Assembly (NCBI GenBank): GCA_001792115.1
Contig: MGFX01000006.1
Location: 146,537 to 210,536 of the forward strand
DNA from: Candidatus Woesebacteria bacterium RBG_16_42_24
GTDB lineage: Bacteria; Patescibacteriota; Microgenomatia; UBA8517
Direction: 5' to 3'
Length of the DNA stretch: 64,000 nucleotides
The notes beneath the pieces were generated by a model that worked only from the letters and a program-made list of their open reading frames with translations, searched no databases and was not told the DNA's origin. The translations under genes were made by a program, and so were the position numbers. Shown in pieces: positions 476 through 56,611 of the stretch; positions within the stretch are counted from its first letter, which is position 1, and the number at the start of each line of letters is the position of its first letter.

Positions 476-548
476 TAGATCATTTATAACAGATTTCAAG
501 AACACCGCGAATTATTAATTCGCGGATGAATTGAAACTGATATGTCAT
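476..548 (-). repeat. Structured repeat element R, core copy 1 (reverse orientation), immediately 3' of the DUF2207 gene
   Basis: Reverse complement reads ATGACATATCAGTTTCAATTCATCC-hairpin(CCGCGAATTaatAATTCGCGG)-GTGTTCTTGAAATCTGTTATAAA, near-identical to 8343-8410. Confidence 0.6.
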
Positions 549-5138: not shown

Positions 5139-5819
5139 TTATGCTAAGACATAATCCGCGTAAGCGATTGTAAGAAGCTCGTCTTCGACTATTTGCATCT
5201 CTGCAAGCCTTATGTCCTCTTCGCTGTACTCTTCATCTGGCCCGAGCTCTAAACGGTCTCTAACCATAAAATCTGTTGGTTTGTAGTGGTCTGGAAACAC
5301 GCGTTTTGCAACAAGAATGTCTTTCAGAAAAGCCGACCATTCCACCGTCTCACTACTTTGGGTCAAACTGCTTTTCTCGATGGAACCAACCTCTTTTGCC
5401 AAGTCTCTAAGTGGTTGAGGAATCCTATGCCACCCTGCGGGCTGCCTGCTATTTCGTATTACCTTTTCACCGCCGCCTAAATCTTTACCAATGAGTATTG
5501 TGGGGAAACCTCTGGCATTAACCGGAGTTAGAACAAACCCGACTGAAATTCCGCCGTCAGGCGTTTTGACGGAGAACTGCTTAGGATCTGTTTGCACAAT
5601 TCGAATTGCAAGGAGTTTGTTATCGATTGTCGGAATGGAGAAAAACTTTTCTCCCAAAACCCAGCCGCCAAACTGCCTAAAGTCGTAGCCCGGCCAGTCG
5701 CTAAAATCCCAATCACTACCTTCAGGTTCGGCTCCGGTAAGATAGTCCTTATTGGACATAATTTCACCAAGGATATCCGAAAACGAAAGCGTGGTTTCCT
5801 CTTCTTCTTTCCCTGCCAT
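5139..5819 (-). CDS. Hypothetical protein
   Basis: 226 aa ORF, acidic N-terminus, no recognisable motif. Confidence 0.4.
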   Translation of the reverse strand: MAGKEEEETTLSFSDILGEIMSNKDYLTGAEPEGSDWDFSDWPGYDFRQFGGWVLGEKFFSIPTIDNKLLAIRIVQTDPKQFSVKTPDGGISVGFVLTPVNARGFPTILIGKDLGGGEKVIRNSRQPAGWHRIPQPLRDLAKEVGSIEKSSLTQSSETVEWSAFLKDILVAKRVFPDHYKPTDFMVRDRLELGPDEEYSEEDIRLAEMQIVEDELLTIAYADYVLA

Positions 5820-5863
5820 ATATTTTTAGAAAAAGTGAGGGAAATTATAACATAAATAATTCG

Positions 5864-5886
5864 GAGGCCGCGCAGGAAATGGGGCC
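5864..5886 (+). repeat. Intergenic motif family 1 copy e (GGAGGCCGCGCAGGAAATGGGGCC), abuts stop of 5887..6165
   Basis: Full core flanked by GGCC arms; TTA stop follows directly. Confidence 0.7.
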
Positions 5887-6165
5887 TTATGCCGAAGATT
5901 GAATTTGGAGTTTCTTTTCAACTTTTGAAATTCTAGGTTCGTGATCTTCATAAACTTTATGAGTTAATATTTCCTGCCCTTCTCTTATTACCTTGAGCTC
6001 GCCCATTACCTCATCCATTTTTCCATAAAATTCATCTTTTGTTGGAAGGTGACTGATATCATCTTTAGTTGCGATTCTGTTTTCAATAGCATCATCCAAC
6101 CGTTCGTCAAATGTAACTTCCATTAAGTCTTTAATCGCCATGAGATCTTTGTTTGTAAGTGCCAT
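5887..6165 (-). CDS. Hypothetical small protein
   Basis: 92 aa, charged and helical, no known motif. Confidence 0.35.
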   Translation of the reverse strand: MALTNKDLMAIKDLMEVTFDERLDDAIENRIATKDDISHLPTKDEFYGKMDEVMGELKVIREGQEILTHKVYEDHEPRISKVEKKLQIQSSA

Positions 6166-6211
6166 AGCGCTATTTAACTATAGAACGCCTATTTCGTCAA
6201 GCAAAAGATAT

Positions 6212-6235
6212 GTGGCCCGCGCAGGAAATGGGGCC
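6212..6235 (+). repeat. Intergenic motif family 1 copy f (GTGGCCCGCGCAGGAAATGGGGCC)
   Basis: Full core with GGCCC/GGGCC arms in the divergent region between 5887..6165 and 6263..7255. Confidence 0.7.
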
Positions 6236-6262
6236 TCAATGTATCCAATTTGGTAAACTTAC

Positions 6263-7255
6263 TTGATGGATAAAAATATAAAGCCGGGTTACAAAAAATA
6301 TTTGGCTTCAATGCACGGAAAGTTTATTACCCCCGATGATGTGATTAGAGAGGTTGTAAAAGAGGGGGCTGGTAATTTGGTATCGAAAAAACGAATTATT
6401 GCAGGCGAAGTGAGTGAGGTATACAACATTATTTTAGAAAACAAAAAGCCCGTAATCCTTCGAATTTCAAGAAGTCCACGGCCAAACTTTCTTCAAGATA
6501 AGTGGGCAATGGAGCAAGTCAAAAAGCTGGGTGTTCCTGTTCCTGAAATCCTACTTATTAAATACCTAATTGTTGGGAATCAAGAACTTTCCTTTTGTTT
6601 AATGGAGAAAGCGGAAGGAAAATCACTCGAGAGGGGGGGCATAAATTTTGAATCGCTTCCCGAAGCAATAAGGAAATCGTATATCTTACAAGCTGGAGAA
6701 ATTCTATCCAAAATTCACTCCATTGAAACCCTAGGTTTTGGATGGATTATTGGAGAGGGAAAGGCGGAATACAACACCTCTGAAGAAATTATTGACGAAC
6801 TGTTAAAAAGAAAAGAGAGGATATATAAGGTCGCTGATGCTCAAAAGTTTGATCGACGGCTTGTCGACGAAGCCCTGGACATTGTAGGCAGATTCAGGGA
6901 AAGATATTCTCACATTAACCCCCACCTAAACCATGCAGACTACGGGCACAAGCACTTTATGGTAAAGAAGGGAAAAATTGTGGCTGTTTTGGATTGGGGT
7001 GGAGTACGAAGCGATTCACCAATATATGATTTCGCTAATTGGGATTATTGGTACGGGCATTACATTCCGACCAATTGGTTAAAAGAAGGCTACCAGAACA
7101 AACAACTATTTGACGAGAATTTTGAAGACACCCTTCACGTTATGAGAATCATGAAAGGGATAGAAATAGCCGATTGGTACGAGTCGCAAAACTATGGAGA
7201 GGCAGTTGAAAAAGCACTTGCCAAGTTGACCGATGACTTGAATTACTTCAAGTGA
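6263..7255 (+). CDS. Phosphotransferase-family protein (APH/choline-kinase-like fold)
   Basis: 330 aa; LNHADYGHKHFMV (Brenner-like HxD motif) and VLDWGG (DxG) arrangement of the APH/kinase-like family. Confidence 0.55.
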   Translation: MMDKNIKPGYKKYLASMHGKFITPDDVIREVVKEGAGNLVSKKRIIAGEVSEVYNIILENKKPVILRISRSPRPNFLQDKWAMEQVKKLGVPVPEILLIKYLIVGNQELSFCLMEKAEGKSLERGGINFESLPEAIRKSYILQAGEILSKIHSIETLGFGWIIGEGKAEYNTSEEIIDELLKRKERIYKVADAQKFDRRLVDEALDIVGRFRERYSHINPHLNHADYGHKHFMVKKGKIVAVLDWGGVRSDSPIYDFANWDYWYGHYIPTNWLKEGYQNKQLFDENFEDTLHVMRIMKGIEIADWYESQNYGEAVEKALAKLTDDLNYFK

Positions 7256-7276
7256 TTATTAGCATTTAAGCGCTTA

Positions 7277-7295
7277 CAGCGAAGGAAGTGGGACC
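7277..7295 (+). repeat. Intergenic motif family 1 copy g, degenerate (CAGCGAAGGAAGTGGGACC)
   Basis: Matches copy b (CGAAGGAAaTGGGcCC); sits 2 nt from the RidA stop. Confidence 0.45.
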
Positions 7296-7297
7296 AT

Positions 7298-7648
7298 TTA
7301 GCCTTTTGAAGCTATCAAACTAATTTCAATTTTCGCACCCATTGGCAGCTCCTTCACACATACAGTTTCTCTGGCTGGATAAGGTTCCGAAAAATAACTT
7401 CCATAAATTTCGTTAACATCCCCGTATAAGGACATGTCTGTTACATAAATCGTGGTTTTAACAACGTCGGCAAAAGTCACACCCGCTTTTTCAAGTACCC
7501 CTTTCAAATTTTTCATTACCTGATGGGTTTGCTCTTTTATACTTCCCTCCAAAAGTTTTCCCTCCGGAGTCAAATAAACCTGACCTGATGTAAAGACAAA
7601 ATTGTCTTTTGTAACGGAGGGAGAAAAAGGGAGTTTTGGGTGACCCAT
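7298..7648 (-). CDS. ridA: RidA/YjgF-family protein (reactive intermediate deaminase)
   Basis: 116 aa; C-terminal PARETVCVKELPMGAKIEI matches the RidA signature. Confidence 0.8.
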   Translation of the reverse strand: MGHPKLPFSPSVTKDNFVFTSGQVYLTPEGKLLEGSIKEQTHQVMKNLKGVLEKAGVTFADVVKTTIYVTDMSLYGDVNEIYGSYFSEPYPARETVCVKELPMGAKIEISLIASKG

Positions 7649-7696: not shown

Positions 7697-8242
7697 TTAT
7701 TCCAGAAGATATTCCCAGCCTGGTTGCCAAGCTTTTTTCTTTCTCCAATCCTCGGCAAAAGCTTGCTTCCAAGTTTTTCCTTTTATAAGTACATCCAAAG
7801 CCAGCTGAGGTGCTTTATGGGCAACAATGGCGACATGTTTTCCATCGTAATTTTCTTTTAAGAAATCCAAAAAATCCTGAATTCTTTTCTCAACATCTTC
7901 GTAGCTTTCACCATTGGGAAACCTTTTTGTAATATTTTCTTCTTGCTTCGGCTCGACAATCTTCGATGGTTTGCCGTTTAAATCCCCATAATTACACTCA
8001 CGTAATCTCTTATCGTAAATAATTTCAACAATCCCGCCAAAAGTGAGATTTGCTGAATCTGCCGATCTTTTCAAATCAGAACAGAAGACAACATCAAATT
8101 TCTTGCCCTTTACTTGCTTTCTCAGCTCTTTCGACTCCCGTACTCCTTTTTCAGAAAGTTCTGCATCCGACCAACCAGAAGATATCCCCGTCTCATTATC
8201 GGTAGTTGTCCCATGAACAAAATATGTAATTTTTACAGGCAT
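7697..8242 (-). CDS. Histidine phosphatase family protein (phosphoglycerate-mutase-like)
   Basis: 181 aa; N-terminal FVHGTTTDNE (RHG-like) and SDLKRS motifs. Confidence 0.6.
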   Translation of the reverse strand: MPVKITYFVHGTTTDNETGISSGWSDAELSEKGVRESKELRKQVKGKKFDVVFCSDLKRSADSANLTFGGIVEIIYDKRLRECNYGDLNGKPSKIVEPKQEENITKRFPNGESYEDVEKRIQDFLDFLKENYDGKHVAIVAHKAPQLALDVLIKGKTWKQAFAEDWRKKKAWQPGWEYLLE

Positions 8243-8261
8243 AAATAAATTTATGACATCC

Positions 8262-8412
8262 TCCGCGGACTAAAAGTCCGCGGTTTCCCTTCAAAGGAGG
8301 ATGATACTTCGACAAGCTCAGTATCATTCTGAGTATTATCGAAGAATGACATATCAGTTTCAATTCATCCCCGATTTAATCGGGGTGTTCTTGAAATCTG
8401 TTATAAACTTGA
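8262..8412 (+). repeat. Structured repeat element R, full copy 2 (nested hairpins + conserved core)
   Basis: CATCCTCC-[GCGGAC...GTCCGC]-GGAGGATG nested hairpin, then the CTTCGA...TCGAAG hairpin, then core ATGACATATCAG...CCCCGATTtaaTCGGGG...TGTTATAAA. Confidence 0.6.
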
Positions 8413-8421
8413 TTTATTCTA

Positions 8422-8450
8422 CTTCGGGGCTAATTTGAAGACAAATTATT
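8422..8450 (+). repeat. Intergenic motif family 2 copy a (CTTCGGGGCTAATTTGAAGACAAATTATT), abuts stop of the HAD gene
   Basis: Read directly; ends 1 nt before the CTA (TAG) stop of 8452..9102. Confidence 0.7.
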
Positions 8451-9138: not shown

Positions 9139-9175
9139 CGAAGGACTCCGAAGCTACTTTGAAGACAAATTATTT
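9139..9175 (+). repeat. Intergenic motif family 2 copy b (CCGAAGGACTCCGAAGCTACTTTGAAGACAAATTATT), overlaps stop of the VOC gene
   Basis: GAAGACAAATTA runs into the TTA stop of 9170..9589. Confidence 0.7.
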
Positions 9176-9589: not shown

Positions 9590-9605
9590 AGATTAATTCT
9601 AAGTT

Positions 9606-9630
9606 GGAACCGATCTCAAGACAAATTTTA
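9606..9630 (+). repeat. Intergenic motif family 2 copy c (GGAACCGATCTCAAGACAAATTTTA)
   Basis: AAGACAAATT core overlapping the TTA stop of 9628..10083. Confidence 0.55.
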
Positions 9631-10083: not shown

Positions 10084-10095
10084 ATCTGAATTGTA

Positions 10096-10124
10096 CCTCG
10101 GAGCTAATTTGAAGACAAATTATT
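10096..10124 (+). repeat. Intergenic motif family 2 copy d (CCTCGGAGCTAATTTGAAGACAAATTATT), abuts stop of 10123..10488
   Basis: Near-identical to copy a; ends at the TTA stop. Confidence 0.7.
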
Positions 10125-10772: not shown

Positions 10773-10799
10773 AATTTTTGCGGGCAATGGCTAATTCTA

Positions 10800-10828
10800 C
10801 TCCGAAGCTAATTTGAAGACAATAATTT
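10800..10828 (+). repeat. Intergenic motif family 2 copy e (CTCCGAAGCTAATTTGAAGACAATAATTT)
   Basis: In the divergent region between 10521..10787 and 10903..11595. Confidence 0.65.
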
Positions 10829-11624: not shown

Positions 11625-11650
11625 CCCCGAAGCTACTTTGAGGACAACCC
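11625..11650 (+). repeat. Intergenic motif family 2 copy f, degenerate (CCCCGAAGCTACTTTGAGGACAACCC)
   Basis: CCGAAGCTACTTTGA-GGACAA matches copy b; abuts the CTA stop of hppA. Confidence 0.55.
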
Positions 11651-14007: not shown

Positions 14008-14038
14008 TTGACAAAACTTTACTACGATACTATATAGT
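14008..14038 (+). promoter_or_regulatory. Sigma70-type promoter of the TrpR-like gene (TTGACA-17 nt-TATATA), overlapped by a palindrome
   Basis: TTGACA at 14008-14013, 17-nt spacer, TATATA at 14031-14036; ATG at 14050. Confidence 0.55.
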
Positions 14039-14046
14039 ATCGTAGT
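14021..14046. promoter_or_regulatory. 26-bp perfect palindrome ACTACGATACTATATAGTATCGTAGT (candidate operator)
   Basis: Perfect dyad read directly; embeds the -10 element of the promoter. Confidence 0.5.
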
Positions 14047-14049
14047 GAG

Positions 14050-14499
14050 ATGACTAAGGTGTCTAGATTACCATTAAGAAACGATGTTTGGGGTAGGATT
14101 TTCAAACTCTTTATAGAAACACTTGCAGGAGTTAAAGAAGAAACCAAACTAGAGATGTTTGTACGAGACTTTTTTTCGCCCACCGAAAGAATAATGTTTG
14201 CAAAGCGTCTCGCTGCCTCCGTACTTTTGTCTAAGGGTCATAACTATCAAAATATTAGACAAATATTGAGGATAAGCCCCTCGACAATTGCTAGAATAAA
14301 CTTGAAAGTAAAATATGAAGGCAAGGGGCTAAATGTTGTTATTGCAGATATATTGAGAAAACAAGATGCAAGAATTATTTGGAAAGAGATTGAAGATCTG
14401 TTCGATCTTCCCACTAAAGCTAGCTTAAAGTCCCCCGAAAGGTTTAAGAGAGGGCTTGCCCGCCAGCAAGAGATCACCGAACTTAAAGAAAGATTTTAG
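14050..14499 (+). CDS. TrpR-like / YerC-YecD family DNA-binding protein
   Basis: 149 aa; FFSPTERIMFAKRLAASVLLSKGHNYQNIRQILRISPSTIARIN matches the TrpR/YerC HTH region. Confidence 0.6.
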   Translation: MTKVSRLPLRNDVWGRIFKLFIETLAGVKEETKLEMFVRDFFSPTERIMFAKRLAASVLLSKGHNYQNIRQILRISPSTIARINLKVKYEGKGLNVVIADILRKQDARIIWKEIEDLFDLPTKASLKSPERFKRGLARQQEITELKERF

Positions 14500-14502
14500 C
14501 AG

Positions 14503-14530
14503 CACTACAATACTATATAGTATTGTAGTG
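14503..14530. promoter_or_regulatory. 28-bp perfect palindrome CACTACAATACTATATAGTATTGTAGTG (second operator copy or bidirectional terminator hairpin)
   Basis: Near-copy of the 14021-14046 palindrome, 4 nt after the stop of the TrpR-like gene, between convergent genes. Confidence 0.45.
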
Positions 14531-20845: not shown

Positions 20846-22057
20846 ATGCAAAGGTATAGATATAAAGCCAAGAATAGAAATGGGGACATAGTAGCCGGGG
20901 AGGTAGAAGCCTCCACCTCGCTTTTGGCCGCAAAACTCGTTCGTCAAAAAGGCTTGGTAGTTATTTCTATAACGCCTATATCAAAAGGCATACTGGATCT
21001 ATTTGCCAAAGTAAGAGACAACATTTCCTATGGAGACCTGGCTGTATTCACCAGACAGCTTGCAACCATGATCAACGCGGGCCTTCCTCTTACCGAGGCA
21101 CTACTTATATTAAGAGCTCAGTCAAAGCCCGCTTTACAAAAAATTGTTGCTCAGGTTTTGGCAGACGTTGAGGGCGGAACAGCTCTCTCCTCGGCTTTCG
21201 CTAAACACTCGAGGGTTTTTTCTCCCTCGTATATTGCCTTGGTACGCTCGGGTGAGGTAGGAGGACTTTTAGATACTGTTTTGGTAAGACTCGCCGACAA
21301 TATGGAAAAAGAGCAAGAGTTTAGAGGTAAGGTAAAGGGGGCACTCATTTACCCCGCAATTATTGTGGCCGGAATGTTTATTGTGGGGTTTATTATGATG
21401 GTCTTTGTCATCCCCAGACTTCTTAGCCTATACACGGAATTTGGCGCAAAAATTGAGCTTCCGTTTCCGACACGGGTGTTAATGTTTGTTTCTGGAGCAT
21501 TGTCGAAATTCTGGCCAATTCTTCTTATCTTAACCGGCGCGGCAATATATGGATATGGGTTATATAGAAAGTCCCCGAAAGGAAGAAGAAAAACCGATGA
21601 GCTTCTTTTTAAAATTCCTATTTGGGGGGAGCTTCAAAGACAAATTATATTAACCGAGCTAACCAGGACCCTTTCTTTGTTAGTTGGAGCGGGAGTTTCT
21701 ATTCTTGAGAGCTTGCAAATAACCTCTGAAGTTGTACCGAACGTAGTCATATCCGATGCCCTTAAAGACGTCTCCAAGCAGGTAGAAAAAGGATTTCCTG
21801 TCGCCTATTCTTTTGCCAAACACCCCGACGCTTTCCCTTTTATTCTCTCCCAGATGATCTCGGTCGGAGAGGAAACGGGGAAAATGGACGAGGTATTATC
21901 AAAAGTTTCCCACATTTTTGAAGTTGAGAGCGATCAAAAAGTTAAAACCCTAACCAGCTCAATCGAGCCTATAATTATGATTTTCCTCGGGGTCGGAGTC
22001 GGATTTTTGGTAGTAGCCATTATTTTGCCGATTTACAACCTGACGACCCAATTATAA
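20846..22057 (+). CDS. pilC: Type IV pilus platform protein PilC (GspF family)
   Basis: 403 aa; two T2SS-F repeats, 3 TM helices. Confidence 0.85.
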   Translation: MQRYRYKAKNRNGDIVAGEVEASTSLLAAKLVRQKGLVVISITPISKGILDLFAKVRDNISYGDLAVFTRQLATMINAGLPLTEALLILRAQSKPALQKIVAQVLADVEGGTALSSAFAKHSRVFSPSYIALVRSGEVGGLLDTVLVRLADNMEKEQEFRGKVKGALIYPAIIVAGMFIVGFIMMVFVIPRLLSLYTEFGAKIELPFPTRVLMFVSGALSKFWPILLILTGAAIYGYGLYRKSPKGRRKTDELLFKIPIWGELQRQIILTELTRTLSLLVGAGVSILESLQITSEVVPNVVISDALKDVSKQVEKGFPVAYSFAKHPDAFPFILSQMISVGEETGKMDEVLSKVSHIFEVESDQKVKTLTSSIEPIIMIFLGVGVGFLVVAIILPIYNLTTQL

Positions 22058-24395: not shown

Positions 24396-24936
24396 ATATC
24401 AAAATTCTAAATTCATATTTGCTAGTTTGAAATATAAATTTAACTGGAAATTGGAAACTGGAAATTGGAAACTGGTTCGCGGTTTCACCTTAATAGAACT
24501 TTTGCTGGTTATATCTATTATCGGGATATTGGCCACATTCACCCTCTTTTATTATCCCTCAGCCCAAAAGCAGGCCAGAGACGCACAGAGAAGGTCGGAT
24601 ATTAAACAATACCAGACACTTCTTGAAACTTTTGCGGGAAGTAATAACAATCTTTATCCATCAAGAACTACCATTCGGCGCCCCGACGAGCTTTGCGGCA
24701 GCTGTGGTGCTGCTTGCCCCCTTGGACAGCTCAGTTGTCCCCGGGATCCTTCAAGTACTACTTATGAATATTCCTACCTAAGTAACGGGACAGGAAGCCC
24801 CAACAACACAGCAACGCAATATGTCTTGTGGACTACTTTAGAAAATATCCCCATTACAACTTATTGGATTGTTTGTTCCAGCGGAAGGACCGGTACCAGC
24901 ACAGTCGTTCCCCCTAATTCTGACTGCCCAATATGA
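24385..24936 (+). CDS. Pilin-like protein with prepilin leader ...WKLVRG/FTLIELLLVISIIGILA
   Basis: 183 aa; canonical GFTLIE motif; leader partly encoded by heptanucleotide repeats. Confidence 0.75.
   Translation: MPNKYQNSKFIFASLKYKFNWKLETGNWKLVRGFTLIELLLVISIIGILATFTLFYYPSAQKQARDAQRRSDIKQYQTLLETFAGSNNNLYPSRTTIRRPDELCGSCGAACPLGQLSCPRDPSSTTYEYSYLSNGTGSPNNTATQYVLWTTLENIPITTYWIVCSSGRTGTSTVVPPNSDCPI
24444..24475 (+). repeat. Heptanucleotide tandem repeat (YTGGAAA)x4 inside the leader-peptide coding region of 24385..24936
   Basis: ctggaaa ttggaaa ctggaaa ttggaaa ctgg read directly. Confidence 0.9.
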
Positions 24937-25442
24937 TTAACAGAAACTCAAAACTCAAAACTCAAAACTCAAAATTCCTGCGTGCGCAGGCAGGCAAAAC
25001 TAATTCTACATTCGGTTTTACCCTGATTGAGCTTCTCGTGGTTATATCGATAATTGCCGTTTTGGCCGGGATATCTATTTTCGGACTCCAGGGAGCCCGG
25101 GAGTCTGCAAGGGACGGTCGCAGGAAAGCCGACCTCGAACAAATTCGTGCCGGACTTGAATTATATAAGGCTGACTGCGGCGACTACCCGGCCACGTTAC
25201 CGCCCCCCCCAAATCCGCTTCTTGGAGATAATTCTCCTTCTTCTTGCTTGGCAACCAATACCTATATCTCAAGCGTTCCCGACGACCCCAACCCGGGGCG
25301 GGACTATAATTACGCAAGATTGACTTCTAGAACTTATGAACTTTGTTCAGCCCTTGAGAGAGTAACGTCGCCCAGTGTTTCTTGCGGCGGAGATTCCACC
25401 TGCGGTACGCCAGATTGTACTTATAAAGTAGTAAACCCCTAG
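24933..25442 (+). CDS. Pseudopilin-like protein (GspG-like), leader ...TNSTFG/FTLIELLVVISIIAVLAG
   Basis: 169 aa; GFTLIE motif; QGARESARDGRRKADL pseudopilin helix. Confidence 0.75.
   Translation: MINRNSKLKTQNSKFLRAQAGKTNSTFGFTLIELLVVISIIAVLAGISIFGLQGARESARDGRRKADLEQIRAGLELYKADCGDYPATLPPPPNPLLGDNSPSSCLATNTYISSVPDDPNPGRDYNYARLTSRTYELCSALERVTSPSVSCGGDSTCGTPDCTYKVVNP
24944..24964 (+). repeat. Heptanucleotide tandem repeat (AAACTCA)x3 at codons 4-11 of 24933..25442
   Basis: aaactca aaactca aaactca read directly, 9 nt after the ATG. Confidence 0.9.
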
Positions 25443-25959: not shown

Positions 25960-25987
25960 AAACTCAAAACTCAAAACTCAAAACTCA
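25960..25987 (+). repeat. Heptanucleotide tandem repeat (AAACTCA)x4 directly after the stop of 25470..25958
   Basis: Four perfect units read directly. Confidence 0.9.
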
Positions 25988-25996
25988 AAATTATTT

Positions 25997-26017
25997 GGAA
26001 ACTGGAAACTGGAAACT
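25997..26017 (+). repeat. Heptanucleotide tandem repeat (GGAAACT)x3 upstream of / in frame with the 26039 pilin-like gene
   Basis: ggaaact x3 followed by ggaaatt; in-frame translation gives WKLETGN, as in the 24385 leader. Confidence 0.9.
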
Positions 26018-26038
26018 GGAAATTCCTCGCGAAGCGAG

Positions 26039-49253: not shown

Positions 49254-49289
49254 TTTTACAAAAATATCCACGCACAATGCGTGGGATGC

Positions 49290-49432
49290 CTATTTTACCA
49301 GAGGAGTAACAAAAATGCTATGACATTCCCCCCGCCCTAAAAGGCGGGTCTTCTTCTGTAAGAGAATGACATATCAGGATTCGATCCCTCCCCGATTAAA
49401 TCGGTGTTTCCTTGAATGATGTTATGAACCCC
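49290..49432 (+). repeat. Structured repeat element R, full copy 3
   Basis: CCGCCCtaaaagGCGGG hairpin, then GAATGACATATCAGGATTCGATCCCTCCCCGATTaaaTCGGTGTTTCCTTGAATGATGTTATGAA, about 75% identical to copy 2. Confidence 0.55.
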
Positions 49433-49732
49433 CTTTGTGTTGGGTTTTGAATTGAGTCGCATTAAATTTCCCCTGTTGGCCTTTAGCCCCAAATTTGCTC
49501 TGTTTGAAAAAATCTGGAGTCCTAAAACCTAAAGAAGGTCCTGCTTTCTTCTTTACAAAGGAACTTTTCTGTTTCATATATCATAATTGTAAATTGTAAA
49601 TTGATAATTGTAAATTTATGTTTTATACTTTAATTGCCAAAGTGTGTTTAATGGATAGTCTTCGAGTAAGCTTCCGTTAATCCTCGAGGCGTTCGATGCT
49701 TTCAATCGTTAGAAAGGAGGTAATTAAAATAC

Positions 49733-56153: not shown

Positions 56154-56407
56154 TATCTAACAGTTTGTATCAGATCCTGCGAAGGGGTAGAATCCTGCCT
56201 TCTAGGGTTCTTCAAAGAGAAAAAATAACTAATAAGGCCCAAAAGAATTACAGCCATACAGGCTAAAATTAAGAAATTATTGTTGTCCTTAAATTCCTTC
56301 ATAATAGATTTCAAGGAAACCCTAGATTTTTATCTAAGGAGGAATTGAACCTACTATATCATCCTCCCTCAGGGAAACCGCAAACTTTAGTTTGCTTAAG
56401 GATGTTA

Positions 56408-56611
56408 TTAGAATCCTTGGTATTCCCAGGTTTCCTGATTAAAAGCTTCGTCACCTAAAATTTTCGGACTATCACCCCAGGAGGTGGTACTAAGAAAAGT
56501 GTAAGACATAGCTACTAAAAGAGCAAAGACGAAAACGGGCAAGAGAAAAAGGAGAATGTTAAGGGAATTGTTGAGACGGTTTTTGTGGAGATGTAAGATT
56601 TCTGGCAGCAT
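56408..56611 (-). CDS. Small hydrophobic protein
   Basis: 67 aa, one TM helix. Confidence 0.25.
   Translation of the reverse strand: MLPEILHLHKNRLNNSLNILLFLLPVFVFALLVAMSYTFLSTTSWGDSPKILGDEAFNQETWEYQGF

Follow-up and report, generated by a model that had tools for sequence, protein, structure and literature searches.

The insertion sequence IS608 has a hairpin near each end on its top strand and inserts 3' of TTAC with neither gain nor loss of DNA (PMC3201880, PMC5934647). Its left cleavage site precedes the left hairpin by 19 nt and is external to the element, whereas its right cleavage site is internal, 10 nt 3' of the right hairpin (PMC3201880). On the 5' side of each hairpin foot are four guide bases that pair with the site, AAAG with TTAC and GAAT with TCAA (PMC5934647). 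Alteration of the left guide alters the target, and the first base of the site, T-4, is contacted by the second base of the guide, A+17 (PMC3201880, PMC5934647). By our own reading, the two published pairs imply a rule in which site base 1 pairs with guide base 2, site base 2 with guide base 1, and site base 4 with guide base 4. A second point of reference is the HgcC RNA family (RF00062), which in Thermococcales and Methanocaldococcus is transcribed from IS605-OrfB/IS1341 transposase genes. We take HgcC to represent the right end of IS605-type elements, the region now called omega RNA. HgcC RNAs of Thermococcus kodakarensis start within IS605-OrfB transposase genes (PMC4247193), and a right-end-like tetraloop and motif is common to HgcC, transposase-overlapping RNAs, and a PATE-derived RNA (PMC4615843). 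The mobile elements of candidate-phyla bacteria have been little charted; a full-text literature search returned no paper on MITEs in these bacteria and nothing relevant on structured RNAs in Microgenomates or candidate phyla.

The stretch of DNA analysed here, 64 kb from a Woesebacterium and referred to as the window, contains four copies of a repeat of ~110 nt, element R, two on each strand, as found by repeat search and by a covariance model. Across the whole window, the covariance model we built scores these four copies at 61–94 bits and gives no other significant match. The three copies put forward in the original prediction all exist and were quoted correctly, with the core 12-mer ATGACATATCAG exact in all three and the central hairpins as written (CCGCGAATTAATAATTCGCGG, CCCCGATTTAATCGGGG, and CCCGATTAAATCGG); a fourth copy, at 56303–56408 (−), had been missed. 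Copies 1 and 2 belong to subfamily A and copies 3 and 4 to subfamily B, and the limits of the four were set from empty sites, as described below.

Copy 1 (488–548, −; 61 bits) is flanked by ATAA at 484–487 and is a short form, with the right half alone (61 nt, ATGACATATCAG...CTGTT); its sequence looks like the outcome of a deletion between the two ATGACAT direct repeats. Hairpin HP2 of this copy (505–525, −) is a left-end imperfect palindrome when read on the + strand, and folds as single-stranded DNA with −15 kcal/mol (z −6.1). Copy 2 (8253–8402, +; 85 bits; fold z −8.0), with flank ATAA at 8403–8406, is full-length and carries an optional hairpin of 41 nt between its left and right halves (8305–8345, +; CTTCGA..CTCAG..CTGAG..TCGAAG). 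This extra hairpin recurs at the same position in three other loci (L062, 4707–4862; L078; and L084), and copy 2 as a whole is identical in L172, a contig of the same strain. Copy 3 (49320–49423, +; 92 bits), with flank ATGA at 49424–49427, is one of two B copies that are not fused to a long ORF. Its insertion point adjoins the stop codon of a small ORF (49422–49577, −), and the first bases of the element complete that stop. Copy 4 (56303–56408, −; 94 bits) is more diverged; its flank ATGA (56299–56302) is the start codon of a 49-amino acid membrane ORF, and base 56408 is the final base of the upstream stop codon.

At gathering thresholds, Rfam identifies only four tRNAs in the window, and no family reaches its gathering score on element R. 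ARAGORN finds no tRNA at the copies, which rules out a tRNA-like reading of GGTTCAATTCC. A CRISPR-repeat reading of GAACACCCCGATTAAATCGGGGATGAATTGAAAC is also ruled out: the match to CRISPR-DR9 has an E value of 0.47, there is no array, and the copies are single and dispersed.

The family of element R was sought in a single scan of species-representative genomes with a degenerate pattern derived from the core. The scan yielded 91 stretches, ~8 of them chance matches, nearly all from Woesebacteria, Shapirobacteria, and other Microgenomates assemblies; many of the records are mislabelled 'Gammaproteobacteria' in their titles. In a metagenome scan, the PolIV of the window as query gave 80 orthologous loci, and the density of copies is 4 in 720 kb of these PolIV loci versus 4 in the 64-kb window. 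Altogether, more than 100 copies occur in Woesebacteria and Microgenomates assemblies, with lengths of 106–118 nt and with pairing preserved. Two of the loci have a known RNA less than 200 nt from an R copy: L028 a glmS ribozyme (7070–7279, −; 54.8 bits) and L079 a 16S rRNA gene (5734–7436, +). The 3' region of this 16S rRNA carries an insertion and ends in ...GGTGAACTCCTAC, versus the usual anti-Shine-Dalgarno tail CACCTCCTTA.

The consensus of element R reads ATGACATCCTCC-(HP1)-GGTTTCC-(P3)-GGAGGATGACAT-ATCAGCGTTCAA in its 5' part, followed by TTCATCC-(HP2)-GGTTTTC-TTGAATGCTGTT and then by ATAA or ATGA. Five helices were identified with RNAalifold and our own pair counts. P1 is formed by AUGACAUCCUC and GAGGAUGACAU, P4 by AUCAGCGUUCAA and UUGAAUGCUGUU; HP1 and HP2 are variable hairpins, and P3 is a small hairpin. 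HP1 and HP2 are located in direct modules, with TCCTCC-hairpin-GGTTTCC occurring twice, and compensatory changes maintain both hairpins. The '80 nt of nested hairpins' noted earlier upstream of the core are present and are in fact the conserved left half of the element (P1, HP1, and P3). The subfamilies differ in the second module and in the flank, with TTCATCC...GGTTTTC and ATAA in subfamily A, and TTCCTCC...GGT(T/A)TCC and ATGA in subfamily B.

Among 118 aligned matches (including 14 weak opposite-strand echoes of the same copies), 94% of cells are paired, and both sides have changed in 35 of 37 pairs. None of 500 shuffles reaches the observed covariation, and pairing falls to 34–44% when partner columns are slid, so the earlier claim of covariation beyond chance holds for the family as a whole. 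This covariation reflects folding that is required by element R itself, most likely as single-stranded DNA. A small ORF starting at the 5' ATG was considered and rejected: the lengths of 106–118 nt take every value and some copies stop early, indicating no frame constraint.

It is close to certain that element R is mobile DNA, as four empty sites attest. The locus L093 is collinear with the window over 47–57 kb, at 72–80% nucleotide identity, and is devoid of copies 3 and 4; the corresponding sites measure 122 and 132 nt in the window versus 19 and 26 nt in L093. At the empty site of copy 4, the upstream stop and the downstream start overlap as TAATG, and the filled site reads ...TTCTA|ATAACAT...CTATT|ATGAAGG; once the 106-nt element is removed, the distance between shared anchors is the same in both. 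Copy 1 is absent from the sister genomes L174–L177, whose DUF2207 protein is 82–83% identical. Their spacer between the DUF2207 gene and the ATP-cone gene is 39 nt, versus 100 nt in the window, which equals 39 nt plus the 61 nt of copy 1. A copy in L106, independent of the window, is absent in L119 and L117, and its flanks agree in length after removal. Excision of the stretch AT(G/A)ACAT...CTG(T/C)T gives exact length matches at three of the four sites (39=39, 12=12, and 22=22 nt), thereby defining the boundaries of the element, with no gain of flanking DNA.

Most pairs from the first 91 loci are no longer syntenic where the element is inserted; the two usable pairs (the window with L055, and L091 with L080) have the same genes with and without a B copy. 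For copy 2, no empty site was found through homologues of the adjacent histidine phosphatase, which are 75–78% identical across many phyla (L172 being from the same strain). The histidine phosphatase gene (7697–8242, −) has homologues of 72–79% identity in Woesebacteria, Shapirobacteria, Parcubacteria, Moranbacteria, Peregrinibacteria, and even Nanoarchaeota assemblies, and is absent from the syntenic region of L174; such even conservation is unusual and suggests horizontal spread. Two features next to copy 3 are shared with L093. The small ORF at 49422–49577 (−) encodes a lysine- and glycine-rich protein of 51 amino acids (MKQKSSFVKKKAG...KGGS) with the same C-terminus there, and a hairpin (CCACGCA-caa-TGCGTGG, 49255–49277), followed on the − strand by a T-run, is kept just before the start of the trigger-factor gene. 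This is an odd placement for a terminator-like signal, directly upstream of a start codon.

Copies within one genome have hairpin sequences in common, for example in DYGS01 (L001, L010, L022, L023, and L090) and in LBWP01 (L033, L042, L050, and L058), which amounts to copy-and-paste spread. Of the two possibilities raised in the original prediction, a small RNA gene or a MITE-like element, the second is borne out by these shared hairpins together with presence and absence between close relatives and exact boundaries. Viral contigs gave two chance pattern matches and no match to the covariance model.

The end architecture of element R becomes apparent on the reverse strand. At the left, the target T(T/C)AT is followed by the element, which begins AACAGCATTCAAG and continues with a guide, (A/G)AAA, and the hairpin HP2'. 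At the right, a guide GAAA precedes the hairpin HP1', which is followed by AGGATG and T(C/T)AT, the last bases of the element. The distance from target to hairpin is 16–17 nt at the left, and that from hairpin to end is 10 nt at the right; the forward strand would show the opposite asymmetry. Terminal inverted repeats of at least 10 bp are absent, the ends of R matching at 5 of 7 positions only.

In 91 of 108 copies the flank is AT(A/G)A, which the top strand reads as T(C/T)AT. The guide changes with the flank. Guides of the AAAA type occur with TTAT in 59 copies and GAAA or GATA with TCAT in 30, with two exceptions. The flank is specific to the subfamily: A has target TTAT and guide AAAA, and B has target TCAT and guide GAAA or GATA. 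At the right end, TCAT occurs with guide GAAA. The pairing rule of IS608 is satisfied by both left-end variants and by the right end, and guide position 3, which is unpaired, is the only one to vary freely (A, T, C, or G, as in AACA, AAGA, AATA, and GATA). The link between guide and target involves two common states only. In 21 B copies whose 5' end is ATAA, the 3' ATG still opens a gene, and the empty orthologue already has this ATG; the 3' ATGA is therefore flank and not element. Since the flank is not inherited with the element, its link with the guide reflects target choice and not shared descent.

We consider element R to be probably a non-autonomous element of the IS200/IS605 type, similar to PATEs. 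It would consist of a left end and a right end fused without genes, the type called PATE in archaea. The active, or 'top', strand would be the reverse complement of the orientation used in the original prediction. A Y1 (HUH) transposase supplied in trans would bind the two hairpins on single-stranded DNA, and the 4-nt guide on the 5' side of each hairpin foot would locate the corresponding cleavage site by pairing with it. The strand would then leave as an excised single-stranded circle and be pasted 3' of T(T/C)AT, with flanking bases neither added nor lost. P1 and P4 may stack and hold both ends together. Several points count against this model, among them the negative transposase screens and the low HgcC scores given below, the ambiguity of a 2-bp AT duplication, and the small number of guide-target states. 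In addition, the right-end cleavage site is buried within P1, a helix of 11 bp, unlike in IS608, and the copies in the window, two per strand, give no sign of the replication-strand bias known for IS608. On one contig of 308 kb (DATDRP010000006.1), seven of seven pattern matches are on one strand.

A Y1 transposase or TnpB motif was found neither in the window nor in 1.57 Mb of fetched loci, by a regular-expression screen of fragments that has weak power. The same fragment sample yielded no autonomous parent with the same ends, and no transposase-like protein was recognized by eye among the ORFs of L033, a contig with three copies. Precomputed Pfam matches in the sister genomes mark a 739-amino acid tyrosine integrase split by a LAGLIDADG intein (L174, 15600–17819; L175, 9722–11941; and L176, 6406–8625).

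Element R is closely associated with gene starts. In 31 of 33 B copies, the element directly abuts the ATG that opens a long ORF (at least 49 amino acids, usually more than 100), and the encoded proteins are diverse, including GatB- and MreB-like proteins. The flank is ATGAA in 27 of the 33, suggesting that the real target may be TTCAT. Subfamily A copies ending in TGnTATAAT have an ATG 6–9 nt downstream in 11 of 22 cases, which places half of them in a leaderless promoter. Upstream stop codons fall within the first four bases of the element (A-TGA or A-TAA) in six copies from both subfamilies, and many more copies are located at most 16 nt from an upstream stop. Because ATGA and ATAA are complementary to TCAT and TTAT, surviving copies are located immediately before start codons (B) or within a TATAAT box that they split (A). 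In subfamily A, the split box is rebuilt by the last T of the element as TGTTATAAT. Landing at T|ATAAT or before ATGA, with the last base rebuilding the box, would explain how the insertion is tolerated.

These insertions occur in a genome with few Shine-Dalgarno sequences. Only 7 of 62 long ORFs in the window have one, which is near background, and 18 of 62 have a TAnnAT box 4–10 nt before the first start codon; from these sequences, the Woesebacterium of the window seems to rely largely on leaderless mRNAs and translation. A repeat of ~35 nt with the form TTGTCT-17 nt-TA(G/C)AAT occurs on the − strand at 8416–8450, 9140–9174, 9596–9630, 10090–10124, 10794–10828, 11627–11647, and 21615–21649. 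It is conserved beyond the hexamers (AATAATTTGTCTTCAAAnTAGCyyCGrrG), is followed by an ATG 6–7 nt later in several cases, and looks like a strong common promoter for leaderless mRNAs. Other features of the window include a perfect palindrome of 26–27 nt, ACTACGATACTATATAGTATCGTAGT, which occurs twice (14021–14047 and 14503–14529) on either side of an ORF (14050–14499) and looks like a paired operator, possibly resembling an NrdR box. Runs of 7-nt units (AAACTCA..., GGAAACT/GGAAATT) are located at 24436–24471, 24930–24976, and 25960–26022, upstream of genes 22362, 24480, and 25013, whose N-termini resemble type IV pilins.

The fusion of B copies to start codons raises the question of whether subfamily B has, in addition to being mobile, been co-opted by the host, in 5' leaders or between cistrons, as a module with a split ribosome-binding site. 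Such a module would keep a formerly leaderless or coupled gene translated. In B copies, GGAGG is located 7 nt before the P4/HP2 hairpin and AUG follows that hairpin; that these form a split ribosome-binding site, which would keep a gene expressed behind a 105-nt folded insert, is only an idea. The diversity of the fused genes, some of them essential, is consistent with co-option, as are the stop codons within the first element bases. So too are the 21 of 33 B copies that start with ATAA instead of ATGA, by which a 5'-terminal AUG is removed, and the loss in subfamily B of the U-run after HP2 (GGTTTCC or GGTATCC versus GGTTTTC). However, a TTCAT target already accounts for the fusion to ATG, GGAGG is locked in P1, Shine-Dalgarno sequences are rare in the genome, and sister genomes have the same genes without the insert. 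We consider it unlikely that subfamily B was co-opted in this way, and equally so that it serves to keep such genes translated.

Element R could instead be the MITE of a cut-and-paste DDE transposon, having very short terminal inverted repeats (~RACAKC), a 2-bp AT duplication, and internal helices that are incidental. Mobility and exact boundaries fit this equally well, the AT at the 5' end and the AT in the 3' flank are invariant, and 5' ATGACAT agrees at the 5 of 7 positions with the reverse complement of CTGTTAT. Target-site duplications, which the original prediction suggested looking for at the copy boundaries, are absent from the empty and filled sites apart from an ambiguous 'AT'; both the element and the flank start with AT, making a 2-bp AT duplication indistinguishable from none. 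A TA duplication was rejected, as it would introduce a discrepancy of one into all three exact length matches. A 6-nt repeat is moreover too short for known families of terminal inverted repeats, and a DDE transposon leaves unexplained the covariation at 35 of 37 pairs, the presence of two hairpin modules in direct orientation, a link between guide and target that obeys the IS608 rule, and the similarity to HgcC described below. A DDE origin is thus quite unlikely, and an IS200/IS605-type element accounts better for the observations.

The similarity to HgcC was seen in relaxed Rfam searches of the reverse strand, in which HgcC matched five of eight subfamily A loci with 26–34 bits and was the sole repeated family match in these loci besides tRNA. 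The gathering score was not reached (best 34.3 bits versus 50), and subfamily B gave no match. The alignment extends end to end on the reverse strand of A, covering hairpin-GAUGA..UGAAC and then GGAAAC-hairpin-GGAGGAnGUCA, with the middle of the model deleted. We give a slim chance to either of two further proposals: that subfamily B is a portable adaptor inserting exactly at start codons, in a lineage whose mRNAs are almost all leaderless, with a split ribosome-binding site or a fold coupling stop to start, or that the reverse strand yields orphan omega-type guide RNAs with the neighboring gene start as 3' guide. If one of these were true, a mobile element would rewire or target translation starts across Microgenomates.

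The other half of the original prediction, that R encodes a small RNA, fared less well. If R gave rise to trans-acting small RNAs, or to orphan guide RNAs resembling omega RNA, this would agree with the strongly conserved structure and with the resemblance of the reverse strand to an RNA expressed in archaea. A promoter-like 35-mer (8416–8450, −; TTGTCT-17 nt-TAGAAT), which adjoins copy 2 and belongs to its context and not to the element, faces into the reverse strand of this copy and would transcribe it as a leader of the gene at 7697–8242 (−). But no conserved promoter or terminator travels with R, TnpB was not found in the window or the fetched loci, and copies are embedded in mRNAs in both senses. 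Wobble pairs in the helices show no strand asymmetry, with 81 G.U versus 70 A.C and 31 of the 81 G.U from one fixed position; the lack of a G.U excess argues against a long-selected RNA on either strand. With A copies in both orientations, and Rfam families all below their gathering scores on R, a small RNA gene is very improbable.

Selection by the host for an intrinsic terminator, or for an mRNA-stabilizing hairpin similar to REP, is likewise highly improbable. In the forward sense, subfamily A has a GC-rich HP2 with UUUUCUU after it, a stretch that was aligned by Rfam to the terminator portion of anti-hemB, and copy 1 is located 3' of the DUF2207 gene, where it had been said to look like a terminator. 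That appearance calls for no such function, as sister genomes keep the gene pair with the 39-nt spacer and no hairpin. Furthermore, copies run antisense to their upstream gene in about half of subfamily A, the U-run of copies 1 and 2 (GGUGUUCUUG) is poor, other junctions are likewise found in sister genomes without R, and a terminator needs no P1, P3, or P4. Finally, a riboswitch or cis-regulatory leader is rejected for want of a fixed sense orientation: 58 copies share their strand with the downstream gene and 36 have it on the opposite strand, or 27 versus 36 for subfamily A when the 31 fused B copies, whose orientation is due to their target, are set aside.

As an IS200/IS605-type family with two target tetranucleotides and guides one base apart, element R would provide a natural test of the IS608 guide-target rule. 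It would also illustrate how an element can survive in a genome with almost no spare DNA, by means of sites (start codons and −10 boxes) that its own ends rebuild. The similarity to HgcC would tie a bacterial repeat to an archaeal RNA family of long-unknown function. In practical terms, element R accounts for the odd 'leaders' of 100 nt and the spurious small ORFs that appear in annotations of Woesebacteria, and its covariance model is usable for masking copies in annotation.

Compared with known systems, element R resembles Correia elements of Neisseria, ERIC, and RUP-type MITEs in being a repeat of 100–150 nt found beside genes and able to supply parts of promoters; however, R lacks the long terminal inverted repeats and the duplicated target (TA in Correia) of these elements. 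With REP and REPIN sequences and their RAYT (TnpA-REP), R shares a short length, high abundance, an intergenic location, the formation of hairpins, and probable movement by a Y1 enzyme. A REPIN pairs two REPs of ~25 nt, which carry a GTAG head, in inverted orientation, whereas R has two direct modules, ~110 nt, defined ends, a fixed flank tetranucleotide, and no GTAG. HgcC differs in that R has sub-gathering scores, a deletion of the middle of the model, no transposase gene, and a bacterial host. The closest correspondence is with IS608 and ISDra2. In contrast to these, R has no tnpA or tnpB in or near any copy examined, is hosted by a Microgenomates candidate-phyla bacterium, targets TTAT or TCAT instead of TTAC or TTGAT, and has hairpin stems that vary widely between copies; unlike IS608, it has two extra helices (P1 and P4) that zip the ends and bury the right cleavage site. 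In common with the ends of IS608 and ISDra2 and with archaeal PATEs, R has a subterminal hairpin near each end, on one strand, and no terminal inverted repeats. As in IS608 and ISDra2, insertion occurs 3' of a fixed tetranucleotide and flanking DNA is not gained. The left spacer is long and the right one short (16–17 and 10 nt, compared with 19 and 10 nt in IS608), and as in IS608, a 4-nt guide is located 5' of the hairpin foot, with the same three pairing positions.
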